The position numbers were made by a program, and so were the translations under genes. This document shows positions 27,083-63,544 of a stretch of DNA of 64,000 bases, in pieces; the stretch's first letter is position 1; each line of letters opens with the position of its first letter. This DNA is from an uncultured bacterium (GTDB lineage: Bacteria > Actinomycetota > Acidimicrobiia > Acidimicrobiales > VFJN01), in assembly GCA_963717085.1 (NCBI GenBank), contig CAVQVM010000011.1, forward strand, positions 233,108 through 297,107, given 5' to 3'. The notes beneath the pieces are model-generated. The model had not been told where the DNA came from. It did not search any database and saw only the letters and a program-made list of their open reading frames with translations.

Positions 27083-27445
27083 GTGACCATGACCGGCTCT
27101 TCCACCCAGGGCATCAAGACCGTGCTCCATCCCGTGACCGACCTGGCGACCACCAAGGCCGTCTACACCGCCCTGCTCGGCGTCTCACCCCAGACCGACG
27201 AGTCCTACTACGTCGGCTTCGAGGCCGCCGGCCAGCACATCGGGCTGGTGCCGGCGGGTGGACCCCAGACCATGACCTCACCGGTCGCCTACTGGCACGT
27301 GCCCGACATCGAGGCGAAGCTCGCCGAGGTCGCCGCCGCGGGTGCCACCATCAAGGACCCCGCCCACGACGTCGGTGGCGGCCGCCTGGTGGCCACCGTC
27401 ACCGACCCCGACGGCAACGTCCTCGGGCTGCTCCAGGACCAATAG
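27083..27445 (+). CDS. VOC-family (glyoxalase/bleomycin-resistance fold) protein
   Basis: 120 aa with IKTVLHPVTDLATTKAVYTALLG...ATVTDPDGNVLGLLQ, a typical VOC pattern. Confidence 0.8.
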   Translation: MTMTGSSTQGIKTVLHPVTDLATTKAVYTALLGVSPQTDESYYVGFEAAGQHIGLVPAGGPQTMTSPVAYWHVPDIEAKLAEVAAAGATIKDPAHDVGGGRLVATVTDPDGNVLGLLQDQ

Positions 27446-27482
27446 GTGCCGACCCCCGCCACGCGCTACGGATGGAGACACG

Positions 27483-29870
<2,388 letters not shown>

Positions 29871-39724: not shown

Positions 39725-40120
39725 CTAGTCGGCGAACACGTCCCGGGTCAGCTGGATGAAGAAGCTGTGGTCGTGCCCCTTGTTGGGATCGGTCGAGTTG
39801 TACGAGGTGTTCGACGCGCCGTCTGGCACTTCCTCTTCGGAGTAGATCGCCCCCACCGGGCACACGTCGTCCTGGTAGCAGGCGGTACAAGACGTGCACT
39901 CGTCGACGTTCACATACAGCAGGCTGTCGCCGAAGATCGCCACCGCGTCCGGGTTCGGCACGTGCGTGTTCTCGACGGTGCCGCTGCCGGCCTCGTCCTC
40001 CGAGAACAGCACCCCTTTCGACATGTCCACCTCGTAGATGCACTGCACGGGGCAGACATCGACGCACGCTCGGTCCTTCACGTCGATGCAGGCCTCGGTG
40101 ATGATCGCGATCCCTGACAT
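39725..40120 (-). CDS. Ferredoxin (FdxA-like 3Fe-4S/4Fe-4S type) with an internal insertion
   Basis: [24 protein letters not shown] and [14 protein letters not shown] cluster motifs. GGAG lies 8 nt upstream of ATG 40120. Confidence 0.8.
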
Positions 40121-40224
40121 GGTCGGCTCCATGAGCTCCGCAAGCGGCTACCCCAGGAATCTTCCCCCGCGGCGGGAGGGCCTAACCAGCTGAACCCCAG
40201 TCAGAGTTCTGGTTCAGTGGTGTC

Positions 40225-40800
40225 ATGCGAACGTTTGGACTCGCGGCGGCGGCTGTGGCCGGCGCCGTCGGCTACCGGCTTGTCGTGGGCGGGGAGCTGA
40301 CACTGGACACCGGGCTCGGTCGGCACATCCGACCACTGGGACCGCTGACGTTCACCATCGCGGCACCTCGCGAGACCGTCTTCGACGTGATTGCCGCGCC
40401 CTATCTGGGGCGGATGCCACGGGCGATAGCGGAGGAGATCGAGGTACTCGAGCGGGGCGGCGACATGGTTCTCGCCGCGCATCGGACCCCCGTGGGAGGG
40501 AGAATGGTGGCAACCACGATCGAGACCGTCCGCTTCGATCGTCCCGAGACGGTTGCGTTCCGACTGGTGCGGGGCCCGGTGCCTCATGTCGTCGAGCAGT
40601 TCACACTCCATGACGATGCCGGCGCCACGCGGCTCGACTACCGGGGCGAGCTCGGCACCGACTTCTGGCAGCTTGGTCGCTGGTGGGGAAATCAGGTGGC
40701 CGGCAAGTGGGAGGCGACCGTGTGGGGTTCCCTCGTCCGCGTGCGCGACGAAGCAGAACGCAAAGCCGCAAGCCGCCGCAGGCATCCGGAGCGGAGCTGA
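40225..40800 (+). CDS. SRPBCC (polyketide cyclase/START-like) fold protein with N-terminal hydrophobic segment
   Basis: 191 aa with TFTIAAPRETVFDVIAAPYLG...FRLVRGPVPHVVEQFTLHD...TRLDYRGEL, a pattern typical of the SRPBCC family. Confidence 0.65.
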   Translation: MRTFGLAAAAVAGAVGYRLVVGGELTLDTGLGRHIRPLGPLTFTIAAPRETVFDVIAAPYLGRMPRAIAEEIEVLERGGDMVLAAHRTPVGGRMVATTIETVRFDRPETVAFRLVRGPVPHVVEQFTLHDDAGATRLDYRGELGTDFWQLGRWWGNQVAGKWEATVWGSLVRVRDEAERKAASRRRHPERS

Positions 40801-40806
40801 CCGCGG

Positions 40807-41766
40807 GTGGCTGAGCTCGGTGCCGGGCGACGCCGGCGCCTTGCTGAGGAGCTCGAGGAGAGCGGGCTGCGCTCGGCGGGCAGCGAGGCCCTCCGCGAGA
40901 TGATGGTGGAGGAGATCGATCATGCGCTCCGTCCAACAGTCCACGAAAGGCGGGTCGCGAGTAGCGGCACGTTCCTCGAGCCCAGGTCGGATCCAGCCAC
41001 GTGGGCGCCCGGGACGCAGCTCGACATAACCCGCACGCCCCTCGGTCAGCAGCCTCTCTCTGCTGTTCGCCGCTATGCCGACGGGATCGCAAGCTGGGTC
41101 CTGCGCCGCACTGATGGCATCAACGAGTGGATGCTGTTCGACCGGCCGGCCGGTTCGGAGCGGGACCTCGTCGTGATGGCCGGTGTGTTCGATGCGACCC
41201 TCGTGCAGCGGCATCCCGCGGGGCCGGTTCGGGTGGTCGGAAGCTTCGGAGTGCTCCGCTGGGAGGGCTTCAGCTGGCACCTCGAGCCGCCGGTCCCCAG
41301 CTGGATCGACGTCGTCGCCGCGTGTCCGCTCTACGGGGATCCCGAGGTACTCGAGGCGATACTGGAGTTCGCGGTCCATGACCTCGGATCGATGGGCATC
41401 GGCTCACTGCTCATCTACCGGCCCGATCCAGCGCCCGGTCCCACAGTCGAGGAGCGGCTGCCGACGCCGCCGCCCCTGCAAATCCGCACGCCCTCTCACC
41501 TTGCTCCGCTCCGCCACGCCCTCGCCCAGATCGACGGCGCCGCCATCTTCGACACCGACGGGGTTCTGCGCCTCCTCGGCGTGCGGCTCGTGCCGAGCCA
41601 ACAAGCCGAGGAGACCGTCGAGGCGTTCGGCGGCACTCGCCACACTTCTGGCCGCCGCTACAGCCACGACGACCCTCTCGCGACCGTGATCGCCGTGAGC
41701 GAGGACGGTCCCGTCTCGGTGCTCCGCAACGGCGCGGTCCTCGGCCGTTCGGACAAGGCCGAATGA
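40807..41766 (+). CDS. Diadenylate-cyclase (DAC/DisA_N) domain protein with unassigned N-terminal domain
   Basis: The C-terminal part shows, in order, GSLLIY, IDGAAIF (DGA), GGTRHTSGRRYS (RHR-like) and VIAVSEDGPVSVL. GTG start 6 nt after the SRPBCC stop. Confidence 0.7.
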   Translation: MAELGAGRRRRLAEELEESGLRSAGSEALREMMVEEIDHALRPTVHERRVASSGTFLEPRSDPATWAPGTQLDITRTPLGQQPLSAVRRYADGIASWVLRRTDGINEWMLFDRPAGSERDLVVMAGVFDATLVQRHPAGPVRVVGSFGVLRWEGFSWHLEPPVPSWIDVVAACPLYGDPEVLEAILEFAVHDLGSMGIGSLLIYRPDPAPGPTVEERLPTPPPLQIRTPSHLAPLRHALAQIDGAAIFDTDGVLRLLGVRLVPSQQAEETVEAFGGTRHTSGRRYSHDDPLATVIAVSEDGPVSVLRNGAVLGRSDKAE

Positions 41767-41851: not shown

Positions 41852-42358
41852 GTGGCGCCGGCCCGGTGGCGTGTGAGGCAGGCTGACGACGTGCAGGAAA
41901 CCCACGGCGGGCTACGGCCAAGGAGAGCCAAGCGAGACGAGGCCGCAGGAATCGCGGCTGTCTGGTTGCGTTCGCGGCAGGCGTCGATTCCGGCCATCCC
42001 CCCTCCGGTCCACAGTGACCACGAGGTGCACGAGTTCTTCGCGAGCGTGGTCCTGCCGGAGCGGGAAACGTGGGTGATCGATGACGACCATGGCGAGATC
42101 GTCGCGCTGCTCGTCCTCGAGTCGGGGTGGATTGACCAGTTGTATGTCGACCCGGGCCACACCGGGTGCGGCCTCGGGTCGCGCCTCCTCGACGTCGCCA
42201 AGGCGGTCTACCCCGAGGGTCTCGACCTCTGGACGTTCGCGGCGAACACCGGTGCCCGGCGCTTCTACGAGCGACATGGCTTCGTGGCAATCGAGTCGAC
42301 CGAGGGTCACAACGAGGAGGGAGCGCCAGACGTCCGCTATCACTGGCCGGCGACGTGA
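41852..42358 (+). CDS. GNAT-family N-acetyltransferase
   Basis: IDQLYVDPGHTGCGLGSRLLDVAK...ARRFYERHGF is an acetyl-CoA binding-type motif. Start uncertain. Confidence 0.75.
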   Translation: MAPARWRVRQADDVQETHGGLRPRRAKRDEAAGIAAVWLRSRQASIPAIPPPVHSDHEVHEFFASVVLPERETWVIDDDHGEIVALLVLESGWIDQLYVDPGHTGCGLGSRLLDVAKAVYPEGLDLWTFAANTGARRFYERHGFVAIESTEGHNEEGAPDVRYHWPAT

Positions 42359-42658
42359 CACACGGCGGTCCTGACGGCAGACGGCGAACCGACCACGGCT
42401 CAGCGGGGATCCGATCCCGGTGCCGGCCGGAGGAGGTGGTGGGGATACGATCCGGGCGGCGGAAATCCACGGGGTGTCGGCGGCCACGAGATCCTGAATA
42501 TTCGGACCGATCGCCTCAGCTACTGGGGACGACCGTCCCGTTGTCCGAGAGCGCCGCGCGGCGCATGACCTCCACGGAGCAGAATCGGACCGACCACACA
42601 AGCGCGCCCCGCTGCCAAAGCTGGTGCCCATCCATCACTCTCTCCCCAACGGAGTCCA

Positions 42659-42973
42659 ATGTCATCGACCCCAGAGCCCGAGCACCTCAACAATCCCCAT
42701 CACCGTCAAACGCTCCTCCAGGTCTTCCAGCATCCGGTGAGCCACAACATCGAGTGGCACGCCATGCTGTCGCTGCTCGAAGCCGTCGGATCGGTCGAAC
42801 TCCGCCATGACGGCGAGTACGCGGCTCACGTCGGTGCCGAGACCGCGTTCCTCGGCCGCCCGAAGGACAAGGACATCGACGTCGAGCAAGTCCTCGCCGT
42901 CCGCCGCCTGCTGACCGCCGCTGGATATGGTCCCGTCGTTGAGGCCCTGAAGGCCAAAGGCACGGAGGTCTGA
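42659..42973 (+). CDS. Hypothetical small protein
   Basis: 104 aa (HRQTLLQVFQHPVSHNIEWHAMLSLLEAVG...). Coding-like composition; no family recognised. Confidence 0.5.
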   Translation: MSSTPEPEHLNNPHHRQTLLQVFQHPVSHNIEWHAMLSLLEAVGSVELRHDGEYAAHVGAETAFLGRPKDKDIDVEQVLAVRRLLTAAGYGPVVEALKAKGTEV

Positions 42974-43122: not shown

Positions 43123-43199
<77 letters not shown>

Positions 43200-43276: not shown

Positions 43277-46264
43277 CTACGCGGGGGAGGTCTCGGGCTC
43301 CGTTGTCGACGTGGTCGTGGTCGTCGAGTCGCCGCCGCCCTCGTCGCCGGTCAGCAGCTCGTTCGCCTGGGCGACAAGGTCGCGGGCCTGATTCAGGCGC
43401 TGCTGGAACGTGGCGAGGTCGCCGTCGGCCAGCGCCGCATCGGCCTGGTCGAAGAGCCGGTCCGCTTGGGCGAGCAACCTCGCAGCCTCTTCGGCCGTTG
43501 TGCCCCCCTGCTCGGGCGGCGGCTCGGCCTCGGGGGGCGGCTGCTCGCCCTCCGTGCTGGGGCGTTCCTGCGTCGCCACGCGTTCGCCGAACAGCCCCAC
43601 CAAGGCCTCCTGCAGCGTGTCCTCGATGACCACCGTGTCGCCGAAGTTGACGATGACCTTCTCGAGCTGCGGTAGCTGACGGGTCTCGTCCTGGGGAACG
43701 ACATAGAACGGCTGCACGTAGAGCAAGGCGTTGTCCACCGGGACAAGCAGGAGGTTGCCGTAAAGCACCTCCGACCCCCGTTGTCCTAGCTCGGTCTCGT
43801 CCCGGGCGACATTTTCGTCGGCCCTGATCGCCGCCGCCGCCAGCCCGGGACCGTCCGGCAGGTCGCTCGATGGCAACTCGTAGGTAACCAGCTCGCCGTA
43901 GTGGCCGGGATCCATGCGCGCCGCCATGAACGCCGTCAGGAGCTGACTTCGGTCGTCCTCGCTGAAGGGCACGAACGGGCGCATCAGCACCATCTCCGCC
44001 GCGTCCGACACGTCCCCCGACGCGTTCGGCAGCTGGAGCAGCTGGTAGTAGGGCGCGATGCGGGGCGCCTGGGCACCGGTGACCTGCCCCTGCTCGTTGG
44101 TGACCTGCGTGGAGGGGTCGGCGCCGGCAGTCCCCGGATCCCGGGCGACCCGCCAGGCGTCGTTCTGGTTGAAGAAATCGTCGGGATCGTCCAGGTGGTA
44201 GCGGCCATAGGCCGACGTCTGGATGCGGAAGAGGTCCTCTGGGTAACGCAGGTGGGCCTGCAGCTCCTCCGGGATGTCGTCGTCGCTGAACAGGTCGGGG
44301 AAGGCGTCCCGATAGGCGTCGATGATCGGATCGTCAGGATCCATCACGTAGAACGTGACCGTGCCGTCGTAGGCGTCGACCGTGGCCTTGACCGAGTTGC
44401 GCACGTAGTTGAACCGGTGGTTCAGCCCGCTCGACGAGGACACCTGGTCGGTGTCGGCCATCTGCCCGTACGGGTAGCGGGATGTCGTCGTGAACAGATC
44501 GACAACCCACTGGACCCGTCCGCCGACCAGCACCGGATAGGGGTCGTTGTCGGCCTCGAGGAACGGCGCCAGCTTGGTCACGCGGTCGATCACGTCCCGC
44601 ACATAGACGACGCGGGACTCGTCGGTCATGAAGTCGGAGATCAGCGGGTTGAGGTCGCCGAAGCGCAGCGCGAACGCCGCCCGTCGCACCAACGAGTTGG
44701 CCGGGACGCCGTCGTCCCCCGTGTAGGTCGCCGTTTGCGTCTCGCCATCCTCGTCCTGGAAGTCGATCTCGTCGCGGTTGGTGTTGACGACGATGTAGCC
44801 GTCGAGGTCCTCGCCGAAGTAGATCCCGGTCCCGGGAGCCTTGATCTCCAGGCCCTCGGCCTGGCTGGTCTGGGGGATCTCTCCCAGCACGAACTCGGGC
44901 TCGTTGCCCTCGGCCGCGTTGGACGGTGCCATCACGACGCCGTACCCGTGCGTGTATGCGAGGTGCGCCGCCTCCCACGAATCGCCGGGAACACCGTCGG
45001 GGTTGATCGTCCGGACGCCCACGTTCACCTGCGTGGGCTCGCCGTCGATCGTGTAGCGGTCAACGTCGACGTCGTTGATGTTGTAGAAGTTGCGGATCCG
45101 CTGCAGCTGCTCGAACGTCTGGCCCGAGAGGCGGGCGGCCGGATCCCACAACCGGATGTTGCGGACGGTGGGTTCGGCACCCGCCAGCGCCACCTCGTCG
45201 GCGTTGGTCTTGCGATCGAACCGCTCGGTCGTGACCTTGTCGAGGCCCAGCGCGGCCCTGGTCGCCTCGATGTTGCGCTCGATGTACGGGCGTTCCCGGG
45301 CCGACTCGTTGGGCTGGACCTGGAATCGCTGGACGTACTGGGGGTAGATCCCCCCGGCCACCACCGCTACGAACATCCACAGCCCCACGGCGACAGCAGG
45401 GAGCGTCCAGCCGCGGCGGAAGATGTTGACGACGAACAGCGCCGCCGCGCACAGGGAGATGAGCACCAGCAGGTTGAGTGCGGGCAGCTGCGCCTTGACA
45501 TCGGTGTAGCTGGCGCCGTCGACGATGCCCCGGGTGGAGGCCGTGAGCTCGAAGCGCTGCAGCCAGTAGTCGGTCGTCTTGACCAGCGCCAGCACCGCGA
45601 GGAGCACCGACAGGTGCGCCTTCACCTGCGGCGTCACCCGCGGCGACGGTGGCTGTACGCGGATGCCGCCGTTGAGGTAGTGCGCCACCGCCGTGACGAT
45701 GATGACGATCAGCAGCGACGCGAACAGCCAGTCGACCACGAACGACAGGAAGGGCAGCCGGAAGACGTAGAAGCCGATGTCGTTGTGGAACTGCGGATCC
45801 TCGATGCCGAAGTCGCCGCCGTTGGTGAACAGCACCCAGGAGTTCCACTCCGACGACACCCCTGACCCGGCGATGATCGCCAGCAGCACGCAGATGATGA
45901 TCCGCAGCCAGCCCATGCGGTCGTCGACGATGTCGTGGTACCGCTCGAGCAGCTCGTCCTCCGGGCCAGCCATCCGGTACGGCGGCGCGATGCGGTCTGC
46001 GATCAGCAGGTTGGACCAGGCCAGCAGGAAGAAGCCGACCATGAAGATGAGCGCCAGGCTCAGCTTGGCCCCGAGGATCCCCCGCCACACGCCGGTCTGG
46101 TTCAGCGAGTCGAACCACAGGTAGTCGGTGTAGAAGCCGGCGATGCCTCGGAGCGACGTGAGCAGGATGAATGCCGCGATGACGCCGACGATGAGGAGTG
46201 TGCGCCCGCGCCTGCCGTTCTTGCGCCGGGGCGCTCGGCGCGGCAGGTCGTCGGGGGCTCGCAT
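43277..46264 (-). CDS. UPF0182-family large polytopic membrane protein
   Basis: Start at ATG 46264 (MRAPDDLPRRAPRRKNGRRGRTLLIVGVIAAF...GFYTDYLWFDSL). Multiple N-terminal TM helices and a large extracytoplasmic domain. 995 aa. Confidence 0.85.
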   Translation of the reverse strand: MRAPDDLPRRAPRRKNGRRGRTLLIVGVIAAFILLTSLRGIAGFYTDYLWFDSLNQTGVWRGILGAKLSLALIFMVGFFLLAWSNLLIADRIAPPYRMAGPEDELLERYHDIVDDRMGWLRIIICVLLAIIAGSGVSSEWNSWVLFTNGGDFGIEDPQFHNDIGFYVFRLPFLSFVVDWLFASLLIVIIVTAVAHYLNGGIRVQPPSPRVTPQVKAHLSVLLAVLALVKTTDYWLQRFELTASTRGIVDGASYTDVKAQLPALNLLVLISLCAAALFVVNIFRRGWTLPAVAVGLWMFVAVVAGGIYPQYVQRFQVQPNESARERPYIERNIEATRAALGLDKVTTERFDRKTNADEVALAGAEPTVRNIRLWDPAARLSGQTFEQLQRIRNFYNINDVDVDRYTIDGEPTQVNVGVRTINPDGVPGDSWEAAHLAYTHGYGVVMAPSNAAEGNEPEFVLGEIPQTSQAEGLEIKAPGTGIYFGEDLDGYIVVNTNRDEIDFQDEDGETQTATYTGDDGVPANSLVRRAAFALRFGDLNPLISDFMTDESRVVYVRDVIDRVTKLAPFLEADNDPYPVLVGGRVQWVVDLFTTTSRYPYGQMADTDQVSSSSGLNHRFNYVRNSVKATVDAYDGTVTFYVMDPDDPIIDAYRDAFPDLFSDDDIPEELQAHLRYPEDLFRIQTSAYGRYHLDDPDDFFNQNDAWRVARDPGTAGADPSTQVTNEQGQVTGAQAPRIAPYYQLLQLPNASGDVSDAAEMVLMRPFVPFSEDDRSQLLTAFMAARMDPGHYGELVTYELPSSDLPDGPGLAAAAIRADENVARDETELGQRGSEVLYGNLLLVPVDNALLYVQPFYVVPQDETRQLPQLEKVIVNFGDTVVIEDTLQEALVGLFGERVATQERPSTEGEQPPPEAEPPPEQGGTTAEEAARLLAQADRLFDQADAALADGDLATFQQRLNQARDLVAQANELLTGDEGGGDSTTTTTSTTEPETSPA

Positions 46265-46310
46265 GAGGGCCGAGCCTACAGACAGCTGTTCGAACGGATG
46301 GAGCGGGGGC

Positions 46311-47054
46311 TTATCGCCGCTCGCCGGATTCGGCCGGGGCGCGCTCGACGCCGACGTCCACGGGCACGACCAGGCAACGGCAATCCGGATGTGCCGGAGA
46401 GCACAGGACCCCGGTGGGGAACGCCTCGCCCTTGCGGACGCCGCTCGCCAGGGCGTTGTCGTCGGCATCGGGGCAGGCCTCACCGCTCCGGTCGACGAGC
46501 CATCGGAGCTCGGTGTCGGACGGCGTGGCCTCGTAGACGCCCCACGCGTAGGCCGCGGCGGCGTAGTGCCGCACGGCGGCACCGATCCGCTGGCCCTTCC
46601 ACTCCCGGTAGACGGACCGGAGCCGCTCGGTCACCTCCTCGACGTCGCCCTCGCACTCGTCGAACGAGCGGGCGATCCGCTCCCGCATGGGCTCGACCAG
46701 GGACAGGCCCAGCTCGGAGGCGAGCGCCGAGCACGACCCGGTGACCTCGCGATCGACGCTGGCGGCGCCCGAGAGGGCGGCGACGTCGAGGTCGGGCAGG
46801 GCGGCGGCGGCGTAGCGCTGGACGTGCTCCTGGGCGGCGGGAACGACGTCGTCGAGGCCGGTGGGTTGGTCCCGGCGCAGTAGGTCGAACACCTCGTTCT
46901 GCTCGTCGGCCAGAACCCGCTTGAGCCGGCGGCCGAGGTCGCGCTCGACCGGGCCCAGGTGGGTGTCACGGTCGTGCAGCACAGCCGCATCGGGATCGAG
47001 CTCCTCGGCGTCTTCTCCCTCGGCTTCTCCCTCGGTTCTCCCTCGACTCGACAT
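46311..47054 (-). CDS. Hypothetical protein with C-terminal Cys/His motif (AHPDCRC); possibly the 3' part of the upstream DivIVA-domain gene
   Basis: Good third-position GC from about 47040 downward. The C-terminus ACPDADDNALASGVRKGEAFPTGVLCSPAHPDCRCLVVPV recalls the end of phage Mu-F/SPP1 gp7-type domains. Overlaps ORF 46966-48549 in another frame. Confidence 0.55.
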   Translation of the reverse strand: MSSRGRTEGEAEGEDAEELDPDAAVLHDRDTHLGPVERDLGRRLKRVLADEQNEVFDLLRRDQPTGLDDVVPAAQEHVQRYAAAALPDLDVAALSGAASVDREVTGSCSALASELGLSLVEPMRERIARSFDECEGDVEEVTERLRSVYREWKGQRIGAAVRHYAAAAYAWGVYEATPSDTELRWLVDRSGEACPDADDNALASGVRKGEAFPTGVLCSPAHPDCRCLVVPVDVGVERAPAESGERR

Positions 47055-48549
47055 GGGCTTCGCCGTCGGTCGCCGGCCGGGCCTCGGACCCCAGCGGATC
47101 GTCCATGACGGCAACCGCCGTGGCCCCGACCCCTAGCGCCTCGCCTCCGCCGGCCGTGCCCGGTGCGGGACCGCCGCGGTCGGCCTTGAGCCGCGCGAAG
47201 AGCTCCTCCACGTGATCCTGCTCGCCACCCTCGGCCTCCTCGCCCCCGCCGTCCCCGTACTCCGCGTCGTCGGCCGCCGCACCGGCGGTGTGGACCTCGT
47301 CCGCGTGCTCGTCGTCGGCGCGGGCCTCGTCGGCTGTGACCTCGACCTCCGTGGCGCCGTCAGCCTCATCCACCTCCGCGACCACGTCGTCGGTGGCGCC
47401 CGCCCGCTCGACGGGCGGCCCCGCCATCCGGACCGGCTCGGCGGCCATCGCCTCCGGCGCCGGCGCGCTCGGCTGCTCCTCCGCCGGGCGGCGGCGGAAC
47501 GGCCAGATGCTCTTCCGCTCGCCGGCCTCGCCGATGACGGTCCGGCGCGGTAAGCCGGCCTCCTCGTCGGCGAGATGGCGGTCGGCCGCCTCCAGGCCAC
47601 CGTCGATCAGCGCGTCGATCTGGTGGACATCCACCTCGTCCAAGCCGTCGATGTCCTCGACCAGCCCCGCCATGCGGGCCACCGTGAGCTCGGCCTCCAG
47701 CTCCTCGACCGATGGCTCCGGCTCCTCGCTCACCCGCCGTGCCGCCGACTCGCTGGCCAGCTTGGCCTGCGGCAGGGCCACGGTCAGCTCGCCCGTCGCC
47801 TCGTCAACGGTCCGGCGCACGACCTCGTAGGCCGCCAGCAGCCGCTCGCGGCCACCGTTCAGGCGCTCAAGCTGCTCACGGGCCGTCCGGCGGCGATGGG
47901 CCAGGTCGCCGAGCATCCGTTCCCGGACCACCTGGGCCTCGACCACGAGCTGCCGTCCCTGCTCACGGGCCGTGTCACGCAGCCGTTTGGCGTCGGACTC
48001 GGCCGCGGCCCGGGCCTGCTCGCCCTCCGCCAGCATCCGTTCCCGCTCGGCCTCCGCCGCGCGCCGCATCTCGTCGGCCAGCTCCTGGCCCTCGGCCCGC
48101 CGCCGCTCGAGGATCGCCTCGGCGTCATGGCGCAGCTGCTCGGCCTCGGAGATGATCTCGCGCCTGCGGTCGGCGCCATCGCGCTCGGCCTGCTCGACGA
48201 GCGTGTGCGCCTCGCCCTGCGCGTCCCGGACCATCCGGGCCGCCGCCTCCTCGGCCTTGGCCCGGATGTCGCCGGCGGCCTCCCGGGCGGCCTCGAGGAC
48301 CCGGGCCGTCTCGACGCCGAGCAACTCCACCAACCGGTGCTCGTCCAGCTGCTCGGCGAGCTGGGCACGAGCCTCGGCGCGCTCCGCCCGGTCCAGCTGG
48401 TGCGACTCGCCCCGTTGGAGCCGCCCGACGATCTCCGACAGTTCGTGGAGGAAGGCACGCACCTCGGTGGGGTCGTAGCCCTTCCGAGCGGTGGAAAAAT
48501 GTCGGCGGGCGATGCCCGTCGCATCGAGGGGAGAAGGCTCGGGCGGCAT
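46966..48549 (-). CDS. DivIVA-domain coiled-coil protein (3' end probably frameshifted)
   Basis: N-terminus FSTARKGYDPTEVRAFLHEL is a DivIVA motif. It is followed by a long Ala/Glu/Arg coiled coil and an acidic tail. Third-position GC collapses in the last ~30 codons. Confidence 0.75.
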   Translation of the reverse strand: MPPEPSPLDATGIARRHFSTARKGYDPTEVRAFLHELSEIVGRLQRGESHQLDRAERAEARAQLAEQLDEHRLVELLGVETARVLEAAREAAGDIRAKAEEAAARMVRDAQGEAHTLVEQAERDGADRRREIISEAEQLRHDAEAILERRRAEGQELADEMRRAAEAERERMLAEGEQARAAAESDAKRLRDTAREQGRQLVVEAQVVRERMLGDLAHRRRTAREQLERLNGGRERLLAAYEVVRRTVDEATGELTVALPQAKLASESAARRVSEEPEPSVEELEAELTVARMAGLVEDIDGLDEVDVHQIDALIDGGLEAADRHLADEEAGLPRRTVIGEAGERKSIWPFRRRPAEEQPSAPAPEAMAAEPVRMAGPPVERAGATDDVVAEVDEADGATEVEVTADEARADDEHADEVHTAGAAADDAEYGDGGGEEAEGGEQDHVEELFARLKADRGGPAPGTAGGGEALGVGATAVAVMDDPLGSEARPATDGEAHVESRENRGRSRGRRRRGARSRCGCAARP

Positions 48550-48638
48550 GACCCCCGATGGTATGACTCGCGCCGGCCACGCGCCGAGGGTCGATTTTCC
48601 CGCCGCTCTGGGTGGTGGCCCGCCCGTTGGGGGCGGTC

Positions 48639-49847
48639 TCAGCCTTGCGAAGCGGCCGGTTGGGGCAGGTCATCGACGTTCCCGCCCAGGTCGGCGAGGG
48701 CGACGAGTGCCTCGTCGAGCGTGTCTACGGCGATGACGTCGACGTCACCGGCGTGCTGCCGGGCCGCCTCGTAGTCGGCGCTCGGGACGAGGAAAACGTC
48801 GTAGCCCCGCGCCCGCACCGCCGCGGCCTTCTGTCCGGTCCCGCCCACGGGCCCCACCGTGCCGTCGCTGTTGATCGTGCCCGTGACCGCCACGTCCTCC
48901 CCACCGGTCAGGTCGCCGGGGGTCAGGTCGTCGATGATCGCCAGCGTGAACGCCAGTCCCGCCGACGGCCCGCCGACGTCGCCGGTGTCGATGGTGACGT
49001 CCACGGGAAAGTCGAAGTCGATGCCCCTGCCCGTGACCTCGATGCCGATGATGGCCCGGGCGGGATCGTCGGGATCGGCGCCCAGGGCGAGCTCGACATC
49101 TCGCGGCTGCGACCTGGTGGGCGGCTCGACCGTGATCGTGACCTCGTCGCCAGGGCTGTCGTCGGCGAGCAGTCGCGTGAGGTCGTCGGGCTCGTCGAGC
49201 TGCTCACCGTTCACCGCGGTGATGGTGTCCCCCGGCTCGAGCACCCCATCGGCGGGCAGGTCGGGCAGCACGTTGACCACGGTCTCCCCGGTGATGCTCA
49301 CGTCGACGGGGTGCCCCAGGCGTTCGAGCGCCACCTGGGTGGCCACCTGCTTGGACGTGTCCATCATCTGCAGGTTGAGCGTGCGATTCTCCTCGGCGTT
49401 GCGGTCGCCGAGCACCTTCTCGCGGGGAAACACGTCGACGTCGTCGTCGAGCCAGCCGGCGAGCATGCCGAAGAGCGTCGCCTGGCGCAGCGACACCGTC
49501 GTGTAGCTGATCGAGCCGTTTGACGGGAAGGTCTGCTCGTCGGCGACCGTGATCAGCGGCTCGGTGTCGCGCACGCTGCCGGGTCGGTACGCGTAGTACG
49601 GCAGCGGAACCGTGGCCGCGCCGACGACGAACGCCAGGACCAGGACGGTGAGCGCGATCGGCCAGATGCGCCGGCGCCGACGGCGGCGCGCCGGCCGCGC
49701 CCCGTCCCCGGAGGGCCCGTCGGGCGACGATTCCGGGAATTGCCGGGTGGCGCCGGCATCGGCGGTGGGCCGTTCGGTGCTCGGATCACGAACCGGGTCG
49801 GAGATCTCGTCAGGGGGGTGAGAAGAGGGTTCAGGCGGCATTAGCAT
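48639..49847 (-). CDS. PDZ-domain S16 (Lon C-terminal-like) serine protease, membrane anchored
   Basis: A TM helix (IWPIALTVLVLAFVVGAA), a PDZ domain (GVLEPGDTITAVNGEQL), and Lon-type GGPSAGLAFTLAI plus GGTGQKAAA (Ser/Lys dyad context). Only the last 402 codons of the 1021-aa ORF are credible. Confidence 0.85.
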   Translation of the reverse strand: MLMPPEPSSHPPDEISDPVRDPSTERPTADAGATRQFPESSPDGPSGDGARPARRRRRRRIWPIALTVLVLAFVVGAATVPLPYYAYRPGSVRDTEPLITVADEQTFPSNGSISYTTVSLRQATLFGMLAGWLDDDVDVFPREKVLGDRNAEENRTLNLQMMDTSKQVATQVALERLGHPVDVSITGETVVNVLPDLPADGVLEPGDTITAVNGEQLDEPDDLTRLLADDSPGDEVTITVEPPTRSQPRDVELALGADPDDPARAIIGIEVTGRGIDFDFPVDVTIDTGDVGGPSAGLAFTLAIIDDLTPGDLTGGEDVAVTGTINSDGTVGPVGGTGQKAAAVRARGYDVFLVPSADYEAARQHAGDVDVIAVDTLDEALVALADLGGNVDDLPQPAASQG

Positions 49848-49856
49848 CGGGCTCGC

Positions 49857-51128
49857 GTGGCCCTGGTAATACTCTGCGTGGTGATCGTCGGCGGGGGTGT
49901 CTTGGCCGTTGCGGTCGAGATGCTGGCGGCCAGTACGGACCAGCCTGCCACGGAAAGCGCCGATCTCCCCAGCGCCCGGAGGCGCTGGGGCGACACTGCG
50001 CTCGTCACCCGGCGCCGGGCCGAGACCGTCGTGCGGGCCACATGCCGAGGTGCCGTCCGGTGCACCGACCGCTCCGGGCTGGCGCTCGGCTTCGCCACGG
50101 GTGCGATGGCGCGTACTAGTGTCCGGGCGGCCCATTCCTGCCGGCACGCCGCCGCGGCGACCGGACGGGCAGCGGGTCAGGCTGGAGCTCAGACTGGGCG
50201 GACGGTCCTGAGCGTCAGCATGCGAGCCGGTCAAGCGACAGGAAGAGCGAGCATGCAGGCCGGGGAAGCGACGGGACGAGCGAGCATGCAGGCCGGTCGA
50301 GCCACCGGGCACGCCGGCACTCGCGCCGGCCGCCGGGCGGTCGCCGTCGCCCGCGGAGGCGGTGCCGCCCTGGTCGCCGCCGCCGCGACGGTCGGGGCAT
50401 CCACCGTGGCGGTGATCGGCGCCGGCAAGGCCCGGACGGCCGCGTTCGTCCGTCGGGCGGCGGCGGGCACACGCCGGACCGGAGCCCGGACCGCGGCAGG
50501 GACGGCGGAGGCCGTCCGGCGAGGCGGCGGGCGGGCGACCGTCGCCACGAGGCGGGGGACCCGACGAGCCGCGCATGCGACCAGGCGTGCCGCCACCCGC
50601 TTGGTGCCCGAGCCGGTAGCCATGCCCGACGAAGCGGACGATCGTGGCGCCCGATTCGCACGGGAGCCGGCCGCCGTCGCCGCCACTCCCGCAGCAGGGA
50701 CGGCGAAGCCGGCGGCCTTCGGGCCCGAGCCGGCGACCATCGAACCCGAACCGGTGGCCGTAGCGGCCAACCCCGCAGCCTTCGAGCCCGAGCCGGCCCC
50801 CTCCACGGCCATCCCCCCGATCTTCGAGGCCGAGCCCGCAGCCTTCGAGCCCGAGCCGGCCCCCTCCACGGCCATCCCCGCGACCACCGATGCGGTGGAC
50901 GCGGCCGCCGCTGGTCCCGTCGGCGTCGTCTCGACCGGCGACGGGCGAGGTCCGCCGCCGCAGCGTCGACTCGAGCAGGGCCAGGTGGTACCCCTGCGGC
51001 CCCGCGCGACGACCAGGCTCAGGGCGACGGGCGAGCTGCTGGTGCTGGTCGCCATTCTCGGCCTGGTGGTCTCGGGCATCATCGTTGCCTTGGCCGTGGC
51101 CGGCAACCAGGTGCTGAGCGGGCTCTGA
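49857..51128 (+). CDS. Repeat-rich Ala/Arg/Pro low-complexity protein with N- and C-terminal hydrophobic helices
   Basis: GTG 49857. This frame has consistently G/C third positions. N-terminal helix LVILCVVIVGGGVLAVAV, C-terminal helix LLVLVAILGLVVSGIIVALAVA, and internal 11-aa and 21-aa repeats. Confidence 0.45.
   Translation: MALVILCVVIVGGGVLAVAVEMLAASTDQPATESADLPSARRRWGDTALVTRRRAETVVRATCRGAVRCTDRSGLALGFATGAMARTSVRAAHSCRHAAAATGRAAGQAGAQTGRTVLSVSMRAGQATGRASMQAGEATGRASMQAGRATGHAGTRAGRRAVAVARGGGAALVAAAATVGASTVAVIGAGKARTAAFVRRAAAGTRRTGARTAAGTAEAVRRGGGRATVATRRGTRRAAHATRRAATRLVPEPVAMPDEADDRGARFAREPAAVAATPAAGTAKPAAFGPEPATIEPEPVAVAANPAAFEPEPAPSTAIPPIFEAEPAAFEPEPAPSTAIPATTDAVDAAAAGPVGVVSTGDGRGPPPQRRLEQGQVVPLRPRATTRLRATGELLVLVAILGLVVSGIIVALAVAGNQVLSGL
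50217..50315 (+). repeat. 33-bp tandem repeat x3 (encodes SMRAGQATGRA / SMQAGEATGRA / SMQAGRATGHA)
   Basis: Units start at 50217, 50250 and 50283. Confidence 0.85.
50772..50879 (+). repeat. 45-bp perfect direct repeat at 63-bp spacing (encodes PAAFEPEPAPSTAIP twice)
   Basis: CCCGCAGCCTTCGAGCCCGAGCCGGCCCCCTCCACGGCCATCCCC occurs at 50772-50816 and 50835-50879. Confidence 0.85.
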
Positions 51129-51144
51129 CGCGGCGTACGGGGCC

Positions 51145-51753
51145 ATGGGTCGGCAGATGGCGGACGCCGTGACCCGCCGGCGGGCGGCGGCCGTGGCCGG
51201 GCACCGCGGCGATGCCGCCGCCGCCCGCTCCTTCCTCGCGGATCCGGAGCCGTCGGTGCGCGCCACGGCGCTCGGCGCCCTGGCCCGCGCCCGGTCGCTG
51301 GCGACCGCGGACCTCGTCGCCGCCCTGGCGGACCCGTCCGCCGTCGTGCGGGCTCGGGCGGCGGAGCTGGCGGCAAACCTACCCGGGGACGTCGATCCCG
51401 TCCTGGGCCCGGTCCTCGACGATGCGGATGCCAGCGTCGTGGAGGCCGCGGCCTGGGCGTCGGGTGAGCGGCGACCCCCCGAACCCGGAGTGGTCGCGGC
51501 GCTGGCGACGGTGACGACCGGGCACGACGACCCGATCTGCCGGGAGGCGGCCGTGGCCGCGCTCGGCGCCATCGGCGACCCCACGGGCCTGCCCGCCGTC
51601 CTGGCCGCCACCACCGACCGCCCCGCGGTCCGGCGCCGGGCGGTGCTGGCGTTGGCGCCCTTCGACGGCCCGGAGGTCGAGGCCGCGCTCGAGCGGGCGC
51701 TCACGGATCGCGACTGGCAGGTCCGCCAGGCGGCGGAGGACGTGAGCCGCTAG
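51145..51753 (+). CDS. HEAT-repeat (PBS-lyase HEAT-like) protein
   Basis: Reiterated D..P.VR..A..ALG units (DPEPSVRATALGAL, DPSAVVRARAAELA, DPICREAAVAALGAIGDP, DRPAVRRRAVLALA, DRDWQVRQAA). Confidence 0.75.
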   Translation: MGRQMADAVTRRRAAAVAGHRGDAAAARSFLADPEPSVRATALGALARARSLATADLVAALADPSAVVRARAAELAANLPGDVDPVLGPVLDDADASVVEAAAWASGERRPPEPGVVAALATVTTGHDDPICREAAVAALGAIGDPTGLPAVLAATTDRPAVRRRAVLALAPFDGPEVEAALERALTDRDWQVRQAAEDVSR

Positions 51754-51778
51754 CTGGCCCCGCGGGGCCCGTCTGCGG

Positions 51779-52849
51779 TCACGGCCGGCTCCACGTGGAC
51801 TCCCAGGCGCCGAGCTCGGACTCGAATGCGGCCCGGAGCTCGGGCGGGGCGAACGACGCCGACATCGACCGCCGCTGCAGCGCCGCCAGGCCCCCCGCGT
51901 CGACCCCGTGGTGCTGGGTCACCAGGGCGAGCTCCCGCTCGAGCGTGGTCGAGAAGTAGCCGGGGTCGTCGGTGTTCACCGACACGTCCATCCCCAGGCC
52001 GATCATCTCGCCGATCGGATGATCCGCGATCGACGGTGCGGTGACGCCGAGCAGCGCATTGGAAGTGGGCGAGACCTCGAGCGGGACCTGTTCGTCGACC
52101 AGGCGCTGCGCCACCGATCGGTCCTCGAGCGCACGCACGCCATGGCCGATCCGTACAGCGCGAAGGCTGTCGAGGGCGCCGGTCACGCTCGCCGGCCCCG
52201 CGGCCTCGCCGGCGTGCACCACCGCCGGGACGCCGGCCGCCCGGGCGCGGGCGAACGTGTCGGCGTAGAGCTCGGGCGGCCACTCCGCCTCCGGCCCGCC
52301 CAGGCCCATCGCCACAGCCCCAACCGGTGCATTTGCGCCCGCCAGCAGCGAGGCGGTCAGGTGGTCGTCGGGAAGCTCCTGGCCTCGGGAGATGTCCAGG
52401 ATCCAGCGGACCTCGACGCCGCGGGCCGCAGCCCGCCGCTGGGCCTCGTCGAGGGCCGCGGCGTAGGCGGCCTCACCCCAGCCCCGGGTGCGGACGTGAT
52501 TGACCGGCGTGCTCGTGACCTCCGCCCACCGGACGCGCTGGCGCGCCAGCTCCTCGGTAAGCGCGTCGGCGCAGCTGACCAGATCGTCGGGCGTGCGCAG
52601 GACCGCGAGGCCAGCGCGGAACAGCTCGATGAAGTGGAGGAAGTCGCGGAACTGGTACCGCTTCGCCAGCTCGGCCTCGGACTCGACCCCGAGGTCGACA
52701 CCGTTGCGCTCGGCCAGCGCCAGCACCGTCGACGGCCGCATCGACCCCTCGAGGTGGACGTGGAGCTCGACCTTCGGGAGGGCGGCGATGGCCTCGGCGG
52801 GGACGGGGCCGGCGGGATCAGGGCCGGCGGCCATCACTAGTGGACGCAC
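51779..52849 (-). CDS. add: Adenosine deaminase
   Basis: PKVELHVHLEGS, HAGE, SVNTDDPGYFSTTLERE motifs. The start may be an internal Met. Confidence 0.9.
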   Translation of the reverse strand: MRPLVMAAGPDPAGPVPAEAIAALPKVELHVHLEGSMRPSTVLALAERNGVDLGVESEAELAKRYQFRDFLHFIELFRAGLAVLRTPDDLVSCADALTEELARQRVRWAEVTSTPVNHVRTRGWGEAAYAAALDEAQRRAAARGVEVRWILDISRGQELPDDHLTASLLAGANAPVGAVAMGLGGPEAEWPPELYADTFARARAAGVPAVVHAGEAAGPASVTGALDSLRAVRIGHGVRALEDRSVAQRLVDEQVPLEVSPTSNALLGVTAPSIADHPIGEMIGLGMDVSVNTDDPGYFSTTLERELALVTQHHGVDAGGLAALQRRSMSASFAPPELRAAFESELGAWESTWSRP

Positions 52850-53063
52850 CGTGGGAGGCCTCCAACACGCCGCCGCACCCCCGGCACCGGGCCCGCCATC
52901 CCGTCGGCGTGACCTGCACGGTCAGCCAGCGGCCGCAGTCCACGCAGAAGCGCCACGGCTCGTAGGGGCCGGAGCAACCCGGGCACTCCTCCACGGGAGC
53001 ACCGCACCCCGAGCAGTGGCGCCAGTGGGCCGGGGCGGGGAGAGTCGAGCGCGCAGGTGCCAA
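52818..53063 (-). CDS. Small zinc-ribbon protein (four CxxC pairs)
   Basis: CSGC, CPGC, CVDC, CRGC. High third-position GC. The only in-frame start is TTG 53063, 9 nt after an AGGAG. Overlaps the add 5' end. Confidence 0.5.
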   Translation of the reverse strand: MAPARSTLPAPAHWRHCSGCGAPVEECPGCSGPYEPWRFCVDCGRWLTVQVTPTGWRARCRGCGGVLEASHGASTSDGRRP

Positions 53064-53262
53064 CTCAGATCACTCCTGAGGCCGAGCGCAGGCGAGGCCG
53101 GCCCGAGCGGCCGTGGGAGCGGGAGGCACACGCCGAAGCCCGAGCGGCCGTGGGAGCGGAAGGCGCATGCCGAAGCCCGAGCGGCCCGGCGCCGGAGGCG
53201 CCAAGAGCGGGAAACGCCGCGGACGCTCGACGCACCTTCTCTAGCCCTCCCACTCAGATCAC
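53063..53262 (+). repeat. Dispersed repeat copy C (inverted relative to host genes) with 37-bp sub-repeats, flanked by an 11-bp direct repeat
   Basis: The + strand carries GCCCGAGCGGCCGTGGGAGCGGGAGG..., matching the minus strand of copy A. Sub-repeats 53101-53137 and 53138-53174 are 34/37 identical. ACTCAGATCAC occurs at 53063-53073 and 53252-53262. Confidence 0.75.
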
Positions 53263-54258
53263 CTTCGACAGCGTGCCCACGGGCATGCGCAGGTTGTCGA
53301 GCATGACCAGGTCCTCCTGTGGGGCTCGGCCCAGGGTCGTCAGGTAGTTGCCGACGATCAGGGCGTTGACGCCCGCCGTCATCCCCATCTCCTGCAGCTC
53401 ACCCAGCGTGACCTCCCGGCCGCCGGCATAGCGCAGGATCACGTCCGGCAGGGCCAGGCGGAACAGCGCGATCCAGCGGATCGCCTCCCGCGCCGCCACC
53501 AGCGGGCGACCGGCCAGCGGCGTGCCCGGGCGGGGATCGAGGAAGTTGAGGGGCACCTCGGCCGGCCCCGCCTCCCGCAGCTGCCCGAGCAGCTCGATGC
53601 GCTGCTCCTCGGATTCCCCCATCCCCAAGAGCACGCCACAGCACAGCTCCATCCCGTTCTGCCGGACGAGCTGGCAGGTGGCGAACCGCTCCTCCCAGGT
53701 GTGGGTGGTCACGATGTGCGGGAAGTGCGACCGGGCGGTCTCGAGGTTGTGGTTGTAGCGGTGGGTACCGGCGGCGGCGAGGCGACGGGCCTGGTCGTCG
53801 TCGAGGATGCCGGCGCTGACCGCGACGTTGAGGCCCGTCTCGCGGCGGATGAGGGGCACGACCTCCTCGAGATGCGCCATCAACCGCTCGTCGGGGCCGC
53901 GCACGGCGTAGACCAGGCAGAACTCGCTGGCTCCCAGGGCCGCCGTCTCCGTGGCCGCGGCCACCACCTCGTCGTGTCCCAGCAGCGGGACCGCCTTCAC
54001 CGGCGAGTCGTAGCGCGCGGACTGCGAGCAGAACTGGCAGTCCTCGGGGCAGCCGCCCGTCTTGGCGGACAGGATCCCCTCGACCTCGACGACGTCGCCG
54101 CACCACGCCAGGCGCACCTCGTGCGCGAGCGCGGCCAGCGGCGCGTCGTCGGCATCGGGCACACCCGCCAGGTCCGACAGCTCGTCGAGTGTCAGCTGGC
54201 GCCGATCGTCGAGCAGCGCCCGTCGGGCGGCGTCGAGCAGTTCGGTCGTGGCTGGCAC
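53254..54258 (-). CDS. bioB: Biotin synthase
   Basis: Radical-SAM CPEDCQFCSQS, YNHNLET, and the C-terminal region typical of BioB. I prefer GTG 54258 (334 aa); the long ORF up to 54750 is an upstream extension. Confidence 0.88.
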   Translation of the reverse strand: MPATTELLDAARRALLDDRRQLTLDELSDLAGVPDADDAPLAALAHEVRLAWCGDVVEVEGILSAKTGGCPEDCQFCSQSARYDSPVKAVPLLGHDEVVAAATETAALGASEFCLVYAVRGPDERLMAHLEEVVPLIRRETGLNVAVSAGILDDDQARRLAAAGTHRYNHNLETARSHFPHIVTTHTWEERFATCQLVRQNGMELCCGVLLGMGESEEQRIELLGQLREAGPAEVPLNFLDPRPGTPLAGRPLVAAREAIRWIALFRLALPDVILRYAGGREVTLGELQEMGMTAGVNALIVGNYLTTLGRAPQEDLVMLDNLRMPVGTLSKVI

Positions 54259-54380
54259 GGCCGGTGACGTTACTGGCGACCGCGACCACGAACCCGAATC
54301 GTTCCGGTGGGAGCCGTGCGGCACACACCCGGACGGCTTCACCCAGTTGCGTCTGGCGGACGGCTCGGGGCGGTCGGGCC

Positions 54381-55394
54381 CTAGCGCCCGGCCTGGAACA
54401 CCACCCGCAGCGCCGCCGGCTCCTCGATGCAGCGGCCGGCGCCCAGCACGACGCACTCGAGGGCGCTTTCGACGAGGTGCACGTCGATCTCGGTCTCGTG
54501 GGCGATGCGCTGGTCGAGGCCGGCCAGCATGCCGCCCCCGCCCACCAAGTGCAGGCCCTGGGTGATGAGGTCGTGGGCCAGCTCGGGCGGTGCGTTCCCG
54601 AGGCACGCGACGACCGACTCGATGATCTCGGTGATCACGTCGTCGATGGCGGCGCGGATCTCGGCCGGCGTCAGGATCACCGTCTTCGGCAGGCCCGATG
54701 CCAGGTCCCGCCCCCGGACCTCGGCCTTGAGCTCGTCGCGCACCGGCCACGCCGATCCGATGGCGATCTTGATCTCCTCGGCGGTGCGCTCGCCCACGGC
54801 GATGCCGTACTCACGCCGCACGTAGGCCTGGATGGCCCCGTCGATGTCGAAGCTGCCGACCCGCACGGCGTCGAGTGCCACCACCCCGCCGAGCGACACC
54901 AGGGCGGTCTCGGTGGTGCCGCCCCCGACGTCGATCACCAGGCTGGCGATTGGCTCGTGGATCGGGAGGCCGCAGCCGATGGCGGCGGCCATGGGCTGCT
55001 CGATGAGGAAGGCGTCCGTGGCCCCCGCCCGCCGCGCGGCCTCGGCCACCGCCCGCCGCTCGACCTCCGTGATGGCCGAGGGCACACAGACCACCACGCG
55101 TGGCCGGTTGAAGCGGCCGACCCGCACGCGGTGCAACAGCAGCCGGATCATCCTCTGCGTCACGTCGAAGTCCGTGATCGCGCCCTGGCGGAGGGGGCGC
55201 TCGGCGACGATGTCGCTGGGGGTGCGCCCGATCATCTGCCAGGCGTCGTGGCCCATCGCCAGCACCTCACGGGTGCGGGTGTTGAGGGCGATCACGGTCG
55301 GCTCGTTGAGGACGATGCCGCGGCCCCGCTCGTAGACGAGGGTGTTGGCGGTACCGAGGTCGATGGCGAGGTCGCGGGCCACTACCGCTTCCAC
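54381..55394 (-). CDS. mreB: Rod-shape-determining actin homologue MreB
   Basis: RDLAIDLGTANTLVY, EPMAAAIG, VIDVGGGTTE, GGGGMLAGLD motifs. GTG start at 55394. Confidence 0.92.
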   Translation of the reverse strand: MEAVVARDLAIDLGTANTLVYERGRGIVLNEPTVIALNTRTREVLAMGHDAWQMIGRTPSDIVAERPLRQGAITDFDVTQRMIRLLLHRVRVGRFNRPRVVVCVPSAITEVERRAVAEAARRAGATDAFLIEQPMAAAIGCGLPIHEPIASLVIDVGGGTTETALVSLGGVVALDAVRVGSFDIDGAIQAYVRREYGIAVGERTAEEIKIAIGSAWPVRDELKAEVRGRDLASGLPKTVILTPAEIRAAIDDVITEIIESVVACLGNAPPELAHDLITQGLHLVGGGGMLAGLDQRIAHETEIDVHLVESALECVVLGAGRCIEEPAALRVVFQAGR

Positions 55395-55564
55395 CAGCGC
55401 CGGGTTCGGACCTCGCCGTCGCGCGGGGCCAGCGCTTCCATCTCACGGCGGAAGTTGTCGATGCTGGCGTCGAACGAGGTGGGGGGCCGGTTCCGGAGGT
55501 ACAGCACGGTCAAGCCGACCGCGGATATCACCACCGCGAGCAGGAGGAAGGCGACGGCAGCCAC
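55382..55564 (-). CDS. Small single-pass membrane protein
   Basis: VAAVAFLLLAVVISAVGLTVLYLRNRPPTSFDASIDNFRREMEALAP... Its stop overlaps the mreB start by 13 nt. Start is GTG 55564 or TTG 55576. Confidence 0.4.
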   Translation of the reverse strand: MAAVAFLLLAVVISAVGLTVLYLRNRPPTSFDASIDNFRREMEALAPRDGEVRTRRWWKR

Positions 55565-55568
55565 CGAA

Positions 55569-56078: not shown

Positions 56079-56142
56079 GCTACGCAGGCCCCGACCGGTG
56101 GGCGCGGTCTCTGGGCGGCGACCCAGGGTTATCCTCCGCGGC

Positions 56143-57288: not shown

Positions 57289-57333
57289 GCCGGAGCCCGC
57301 GACGCCGCCGTGAGGCGCCCACACCCGCGGACA

Positions 57334-58374: not shown

Positions 58375-58436
58375 GGCTCTTACCTTGCCAGCTGGGACCG
58401 GCTGAAACACCACGGGGTCGGAAGCAGCGCGCCGCG

Positions 58437-59732: not shown

Positions 59733-59777
59733 TCCGGCCGGCCCTCCGGCGCTACTGCAGCTTCGTGGGGTCGATGA

Positions 59778-62291: not shown

Positions 62292-63540
<1,249 letters not shown>

Positions 63541-63544
<4 letters not shown>

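Follow-up and report, generated by a model that had tools for sequence, protein, structure and literature searches.

A predicted soluble diadenylate cyclase of the catalogued DACNK-DAC family in an uncultured Acidimicrobiales genome

Introduction

What does an apparently orphan diadenylate cyclase (DAC) gene of an uncultured actinobacterium encode, and do its neighbours share in its function? The question was raised by a stretch of 64,000 nucleotides (nt) from a member of the Acidimicrobiales (GTDB lineage Bacteria; Actinomycetota; Acidimicrobiia; Acidimicrobiales; VFJN01; GenBank assembly GCA_963717085.1, contig CAVQVM010000011.1, forward-strand positions 233,108 to 297,107). This whole stretch is called the window below, and the gene of interest lies in it between an SRPBCC gene and a GNAT open reading frame (ORF) (Table 1). 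A first-pass annotation, made from the letters alone, had read the product as a soluble DAC with a new, sensor-like N-terminal domain coupled to a ligand-binding SRPBCC protein, and had proposed either a new input route into cyclic di-AMP (c-di-AMP) signalling or a cyclase making a different product. Our results showed that the window gene is an ordinary member of the catalogued DACNK-DAC family, which is widespread in uncultured soil Acidimicrobiales; both the family and its annotation were on record beforehand. We estimate a probability of roughly 70% that its product is a cytoplasmic, stand-alone c-di-AMP synthase in which the DACNK domain gates the head-to-head pairing of the DAC domains.

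Fold and catalytic residues of the DAC domain

In the family search, the 319-residue ORF matched the Pfam family DAC (DisA_N, PF02457) at residues 236-310 with 30.5 bits (gathering score 27; E=2.9e-7). The DAC motifs occurred in the order given by the first-pass annotation: GSLLIY (residues 199-204), IDGAAIF (residues 242-248), GGTRHTSGRRYS (residues 275-286, holding R278-H279-T280) and VIAVSEDGPVSVL (residues 294-306). A Pro-rich insertion after the first strand of the domain (residues 205-228) is a difference from CdaA/DacA. Furthermore, a phmmer search against the sequences of the Protein Data Bank (PDB) aligned the same elements to CdaA (GALL with GSLL, DGA with DGA, GTRHR with GTRHT, and SEETGGVSV with SEDGPVSV), the single-sequence match itself being not significant (E=0.5).

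The structure of the full protein was predicted with AlphaFold (AF2) from a 48-sequence alignment. The model had two domains, with a pLDDT of 94.0 and a pTM of 0.90. When it was compared with the PDB by Foldseek, the best 50 matches were all DAC enzymes, with E values down to 1e-6 and TM-scores of up to 0.66 (normalised to CdaA). These matches comprised DisA of Mycobacterium tuberculosis and Thermotoga maritima, CdaA/DacA of several Firmicutes, CdaM/DacM, and CdaS (2FB5). The model showed that the C-terminal ~140 amino acids (aa) adopt the DAC fold, which identifies the protein as a predicted DAC. Both the Pfam match and the predicted fold are therefore in line with what the first-pass annotation had expected of a true DAC.

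The conservation of the catalytic motifs was then followed through the family. Residues D243, A245, G276, R278, H279 and S298 did not vary among 48 diverse relatives, even at ~30% identity, and D243 is the DGA aspartate whose retention in orthologues the first-pass annotation had picked out as diagnostic. Close orthologues carried DGA in 118/120 cases and SEDG or SDDG in 119/120 (SEDG 109, SDDG 10). Among 94 family representatives, DGA was found in 40, DLA in 22 and DRA in 12, with the Asp and the Ala staying fixed. A scan for the S-x-x-G motif showed that Asp is almost constant at the site of D300 and that position 299 varies, SADG, SQDG and SSDG being found among the representatives. In the RHR region, 119 of the 120 close orthologues had RHT, as did 66 of the 94 representatives with the motif (RHR in 10; RHA, RHS, RHG and RHN in a few each). 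On these alignments, Thr is therefore the consensus of the family and not peculiar to the window gene. The first-pass annotation was thus right that Thr replaces the second Arg; its suggestion that this variant sets the protein apart was not borne out, and the variant is no pointer to a different product. Two further arginines, R283 and R284, lie on the same helix one turn past RHT and are conserved.

Published structures and mutants allow these positions to be read in terms of substrate contacts. In Staphylococcus aureus DacA, the Asp and the Gly of DGA touch the ribose and the Thr preceding RHR touches the phosphate (PMC6368335), and in DacM the first Arg of RHR touches the ribose and is essential (bioRxiv 10.1101/2022.03.11.483894). 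By alignment, the positions known from solved DACs to touch the ATP ribose and alpha-phosphate (D243-G244, T277, R278 and H279) were shown to be all kept, together with S298-x-D300.

The median dN/dS of the gene against 80 orthologues was 0.19; taken separately, the DAC domain gave 0.16 and the N-terminal domain 0.22. Both domains are under purifying selection, which is tighter on the DAC domain than on the N-terminal domain.

The N-terminal DACNK domain

The ~190 N-terminal residues had been described as unrecognised and possibly new. They proved to hold a catalogued domain, PF21753 ("Probable sensor domain DACNK"), which matched residues 11-159 with 65.7 bits (cut-off 27; E=5e-18) over profile positions 2-145 of 146. 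The pair DACNK+DAC was present in 48/48 diverse full-length relatives (27-56% identity). Polar residues conserved in the domain are E15, E36, H46/E47, R88, D92-G93, E118, Q134/R135 and W157. No transmembrane (TM) helix was predicted in the protein, because the maximum of the 19-residue Kyte-Doolittle hydropathy was only 1.39. Pfam and NCBIfam gave no match to a helix-hairpin-helix (HhH) domain or a DisA linker, and no NCBIfam model matched above its cut-off.

A model of the DACNK domain by itself had a pLDDT of 94.5. In the Foldseek search of the PDB with this model, the best 25 matches were all DAC domains (TM-score 0.39-0.43), among them M. tuberculosis DisA (E=3.5e-3, probability 0.98), CdaA (TM-score 0.43) and CdaM (root-mean-square deviation 4.6 Å over 118 columns); beyond the DAC matches the probability was at most 0.14. 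A comparison with viral structures returned noise only (probability at most 0.41). The order of helices and strands in DACNK is co-linear with that of the DAC domain, and a permissive hhalign run paired V45-H46-E47...G54 with V190-H191-D192...G199, D92-G93 with D243-G244, and G139-P-V-R-V with G301-P-V-S-V.

Judging from the predicted structure, it is possible, though less likely than not, that DACNK is a degenerate copy of the DAC domain, so that the protein would be a tandem of a pseudo-DAC and a DAC whose inactive copy controls the active one. Such a pseudo-DAC could block the catalytic face in cis by mimicking the head-to-head partner, or could bind ATP or c-di-AMP allosterically. If this were true, it would form a parallel to the degenerate GGDEF and EAL domains of c-di-GMP signalling.

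The sequences were also examined for an internal duplication. The hhalign comparison of the N-domain profile with the DAC-domain profile gave P=0.036, yet 29/200 block-shuffled controls scored as high; in a permutation of whole secondary-structure elements, 38/200 controls scored as high (z=0.6). Sequence support for a duplication was rejected because shuffled and permuted controls reached the same scores.

Comparison with known diadenylate cyclases

The window protein matches the DACNK-DAC family (PF21753 + PF02457) in architecture, in length (~319 aa) and in every conserved motif, RHT among them. It is a short form, whereas about 40% of the family representatives carry a C-terminal zinc ribbon. 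This ribbon, of ~80 aa and with the pattern CxxC...CPxC, was seen in 38/94 representatives (P0155, P0161, P0163, P0168 and others) and is absent from the window protein. Upstream of the DAC gene of P0155, at a distance of 4 nt, lies a gene for an 83-aa zf-UBP protein (locus L084, 3226-3477).

The characterised DACs differ from the window protein in domain order, membrane attachment and regulator. The membrane-anchored CdaA/DacA of Firmicutes (PDB 4RV7, 6HVL, 6GYW and 8OGK) has the same DAC fold, and its DGA motif, the Thr-Arg-His of its RHR region and its S-E-acidic segment all align with the window protein. However, CdaA/DacA has three N-terminal TM helices, the cdaA-cdaR-glmM context and RHR, whereas the window protein has no TM helix, has SRPBCC, GNAT and ferredoxin neighbours, and has RHT. 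DisA, which is actinobacterial like the window protein, supplied the best Foldseek match (M. tuberculosis DisA 9y9y, E=1e-6), but its DAC domain stands at the N-terminus, ahead of a helical linker and HhH, whereas that of the window protein stands at the C-terminus and is accompanied by neither. The NCBIfam equivalog for DisA, PRK13482, scored 15.5 bits against a cut-off of 201. CdaS, a soluble sporulation enzyme (PDB 2FB5, among the fold matches), shares the logic of an N-terminal regulator followed by a C-terminal DAC; its regulator consists of two autoinhibitory helices, whereas that of the window protein would be a 175-aa alpha/beta domain. The earlier description of a soluble DAC, unlike DisA, CdaA or CdaS, in an Acidimicrobiales genome is thus upheld.

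Distribution of the family and prior knowledge

A protein search of 5.8 billion sequences returned 2,342 homologues. The best 120 matches were all of ~319 aa and all carried PF21753+PF02457. Proteins with 94-96% identity are already public, under the names "diadenylate cyclase [Acidimicrobiales bacterium]" at NCBI and "sensor domain DACNK-containing protein" at JGI. In a HMMER scan of 1.84 billion cluster representatives, 544 clusters were found at E<=1e-3 and 85 at E<=1e-30. When 185,579 species, each represented by a single genome, were scanned with an 11-sequence alignment, 412 genomes held a relative. The best 80 of these genomes (69-94% identity) supplied the orthologue loci compared here; by label, 77 were Acidimicrobiia/Actinomycetota, 2 were metagenome-assembled genomes (MAGs) named generically 'bacterium' (L016, L080) and 1 was Burkholderiales (L041). 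The last of these, a 73%-identical orthologue in an 'uncultured Burkholderiales' MAG (CAZLEC010000206.1), is probably a mis-binned contig. A cultured and fully sequenced host is Aquihabitans sp. G128 (protein P0314, CP077604.1, 59% identity).

The DACNK domain was reportedly named and defined by Galperin in 2023. A full-text literature search for 'DACNK' retrieved one irrelevant paper only. According to papers that cite it, a 2023 census used the N-terminal domains to re-sort DACs into 22 families (Galperin, J Bacteriol, PMC10127676, doi 10.1128/jb.00023-23). A review of the same year names DisA as the one DAC protein that Actinobacteria have (PMC10117811). The first-pass annotation had described Actinobacteria in similar terms, so that the rule does stand in the literature; as a description of Acidimicrobiia it does not hold, since DACNK-DAC is common there, as the species-level scan showed. 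DACNK-DAC in Acidimicrobiia is thus an exception to the "DisA only" generalisation, though one already recorded in databases. Little of this is new, and the RHT-type DAC, the DACNK input and the question of a dead copy would make a small biochemical project.

Conservation of the gene neighbourhood

Both neighbours named by the first-pass annotation, the SRPBCC gene 6 nt upstream and the GNAT downstream, are present in the window. The TGA of the SRPBCC gene (40798-40800) stands 6 nt ahead of the GTG of the DAC gene, with GGAG in the gap, and the two genes are probably co-transcribed in the window genome.

In the synteny analysis, a gene caller based on GC content at third codon positions (GC3) missed the DAC gene in 32/80 loci; synteny was therefore re-tested on all loci by tblastn of the window neighbours (E<=1, within 3 kb), with enough flank for SRPBCC in 75 loci and for GNAT in 79. 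An SRPBCC gene lay upstream in 1/75 loci, namely L001 (93% DNA identity), and a GNAT lay downstream of the DAC gene in 0/79. When the called neighbours were clustered, no family occurred in more than 7/45 loci and none at a fixed position. Across 80+ loci, no conserved neighbour gene was found. The coupling of the cyclase to the SRPBCC ligand-binding protein or the GNAT, as it had been proposed, is thus not conserved.

The close relatives of the window showed how the gene row breaks down. SRPBCC-DAC adjacency was confined to relatives with at least 93% DNA identity (L001, L088 and L091). In L088 (96%), the pair is followed by an APH-type kinase gene. In L089 (94% DNA identity), the SRPBCC gene is cut to its last 72 codons (2937-3152; 96% identity to residues 107-178) and the DAC gene is intact. 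L091 encodes an identical DAC protein, and its flanks are 99.6-99.85% identical to the window; there, a different segment of ~700 nt (6265-6972) takes the place of window positions 42068-42568, so that the GNAT ORF loses its 3' two-thirds, GNAT residues 1-72 alone align (84%), and no gene is called in the public record. In L001, L088 and L089 (93-96% DNA identity), homology to the window stops at 41768, 2 nt past the stop codon of the DAC gene. Because the row falls apart even in relatives with 94-99.6% DNA identity, the conserved unit is the DAC gene alone, and SRPBCC and GNAT stand beside it by chance in the window lineage.

More distant loci have other contexts. By Pfam, the order in Aquihabitans is GlyRS, hypothetical, DAC and P450; another context at 59-61% identity reads Acetyltransf_3, two Flavodoxin_2 genes, DAC and Indigoidine_A; and a long-form relative has two ABC2 genes, zf-UBP, DAC and MgtC.

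Some further observations concern the flanks. Position 41768, at which the three independent relatives L001, L088 and L089 part from the window, is a sharp boundary of recombination or rearrangement. Downstream of it, L088 and L089 have an APH-type kinase, an inositol monophosphatase and a DeoR regulator, where the window has the GNAT, a hypothetical gene and tRNA-Met. The replacement in L091 reflects either a polymorphism within the population or a difference between the assemblies. The only recurring neighbour was an FdxA-like ferredoxin gene, found 67-82 nt from the DAC gene in the distant orthologue loci L038, L039 and L014. Since fdxA adjoins the DAC gene in these three distant loci, the SRPBCC gene looks inserted between the two in the window lineage. 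The match of the window fdxA product (39725-40132, minus strand, 135 aa) to the actinobacterial FdxA model of ~107 aa falls into two stretches with a gap between them, pointing to an insertion. A 104-aa ORF of no Pfam family (42659-42973, plus strand) lies between the GNAT and tRNA-Met (43123-43199, minus strand), and a 68%-identical copy adjoins the DAC gene in L016 (6986-7288) on the opposite strand.

Proposed mechanism and alternative explanations

The results above show the fold, the motif conservation, the selection, the architecture and the lack of partner genes; the activity, the product and a regulatory role of DACNK are inferred. In the proposed mechanism, the DAC domains of two chains would come together head-to-head, each carrying ATP and a divalent metal, and the pair would make c-di-AMP. 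DACNK would control the timing of this encounter in response to a cytoplasmic cue, either through a bound ligand or through control of the oligomeric state, by analogy with the N-terminal helices of CdaS or with GlmM acting on CdaA. R283/R284 may compensate for the absence of the second Arg by taking over contacts to phosphate.

Several points weigh against c-di-AMP synthesis by this protein. The Pfam DAC match clears its threshold by a small margin and spans profile positions 48-118 of 119; the canonical RHR is incomplete, its Arg and His being invariant and its second Arg being Thr; in the wider family, Leu or Arg often takes the place of the Gly in DGA, with DLA or DRA in about a third of the representatives; and the searchable literature contains no assayed member of the DACNK-DAC family. 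In addition, changing RHR to AAA abolished ATP binding and activity both in DacA (PMC3328451) and in CdaS (PMC4568413). Of these points, those from the sequences and the mutants would also fit a non-canonical DAC that makes no c-di-AMP and acts as a receptor of ATP or c-di-AMP, as a pseudo-enzyme or as the source of another nucleotide product. The cited mutants concern the whole of RHR or its first Arg, not the second Arg by itself. On the other side, the substrate-contact residues of solved DACs (D, G, T, first R, H and S) are invariant or nearly so. Moreover, a G73A change in the DGA motif of M. tuberculosis DacA leaves activity intact (PMC3328451), which makes the Gly dispensable there; the dN/dS values place the tighter constraint on the DAC domain; and the sequences carry no sign of altered base specificity. 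We therefore regard a non-canonical DAC as unlikely, and c-di-AMP synthesis remains the preferred reading.

The other alternatives place the gene in a larger system, and we consider both of them very improbable. In one, SRPBCC, DAC and GNAT would form a functional module, with the SRPBCC protein detecting a small ligand and signalling to the cyclase. The 6-nt gap with GGAG before the GTG suggests co-translation in the window genome, and the adjacency persists in the three close relatives named above. Nevertheless, this module is largely refuted by synteny: even at the permissive tblastn threshold, the SRPBCC partner is found at a single species-level locus and the GNAT at none; the gene has other neighbours at 59-61% identity (GlyRS and P450, or flavodoxin-like and Indigoidine_A); the SRPBCC gene is truncated beside an intact DAC gene in L089, and the GNAT is disrupted in L091; and in L001, L088 and L089 homology ends 2 nt after the DAC stop codon. 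In the other, the protein would serve antiphage defence, with phage-triggered, CBASS-like c-di-AMP signalling. Some dac genes are said to sit with defence genes in Galperin's work of 2023. The genomic context of the DACNK-DAC gene is highly variable, and its DAC domain gave a weak NCBIfam match to 'DS2_3_antiphage' (E=0.0014, 17 bits vs a cut-off of 630). However, PADLOC matched neither the DACNK-DAC protein nor its neighbours nor a long-form relative. The surrounding genes have ordinary metabolic and housekeeping roles, no adjacent effector was seen in any inspected locus, and the orthologues, spread over 412 species-level genomes, are under purifying selection. These results leave a stand-alone cyclase gated by DACNK as the reading that we prefer.

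Features of the locus and the wider window

The coordinates of the features discussed above are collected in Table 1.

Table 1. Positions in the window of the DACNK-DAC gene, its domains and motifs, and the two adjacent genes
Feature	Coordinates	Strand	Remarks
DACNK-DAC gene	40807..41766	+	GTG start, 319 aa; predicted soluble diadenylate cyclase
DACNK domain	40837..41283	+	residues 11-159 by Pfam; structural domain about 1-175; probable regulatory/sensor domain
DAC (DisA_N) catalytic domain	41332..41754	+	residues about 176-316; PF02457 and fold matches
DGA motif, D243 G244 A245	41533..41541	+	position in protein; conservation
G-T-R-H-T, G276-T280, equivalent of RHR with Thr for the second Arg	41632..41646	+	
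S-E-D, S298 E299 D300, equivalent of the CdaA SEE segment	41698..41706	+	alignment to CdaA
SRPBCC (Polyketide_cyc2) gene, upstream neighbour	40225..40800	+	Pfam, 34 bits
GNAT ORF, downstream neighbour	41852..42358	+	Pfam Acetyltransf_1, 51.9 bits

The window is a piece of ordinary chromosome. It encodes oxygenases, P450s, a short-chain dehydrogenase/reductase (SDR), a CoA-transferase, MarR/TetR regulators and a UvrA-like ABC protein, as well as GlcD/GlcF-like proteins, a metallophosphoesterase with a TAT signal, CspA, FdxA, tRNA-Met, UPF0182, DivIVA, adenosine deaminase, MreB, MoaE and a histidine kinase. A search of the six-frame translation of the window with the family DAC HMM found no second DAC in this stretch. 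Rfam found no c-di-AMP riboswitch in the window, tRNA-Met being the sole match.

The GC content rises from ~0.67-0.70 to 0.72-0.78 past ~46 kb (window ~46000-64000), with a peak of 0.777 at 50-52 kb. Two long ORFs of high GC3 overlap on opposite strands, one at 46966-48669 (minus strand) with a DivIVA domain and one at 47554-48774 (plus strand); the latter is probably a shadow ORF, because it has no Pfam match and overlaps the DivIVA ORF. The gene at 27276-29870 (plus strand) encodes an 864-aa protein whose two ABC ATPase regions and zinc-finger-like CxxC segment mark it as UvrA-like.

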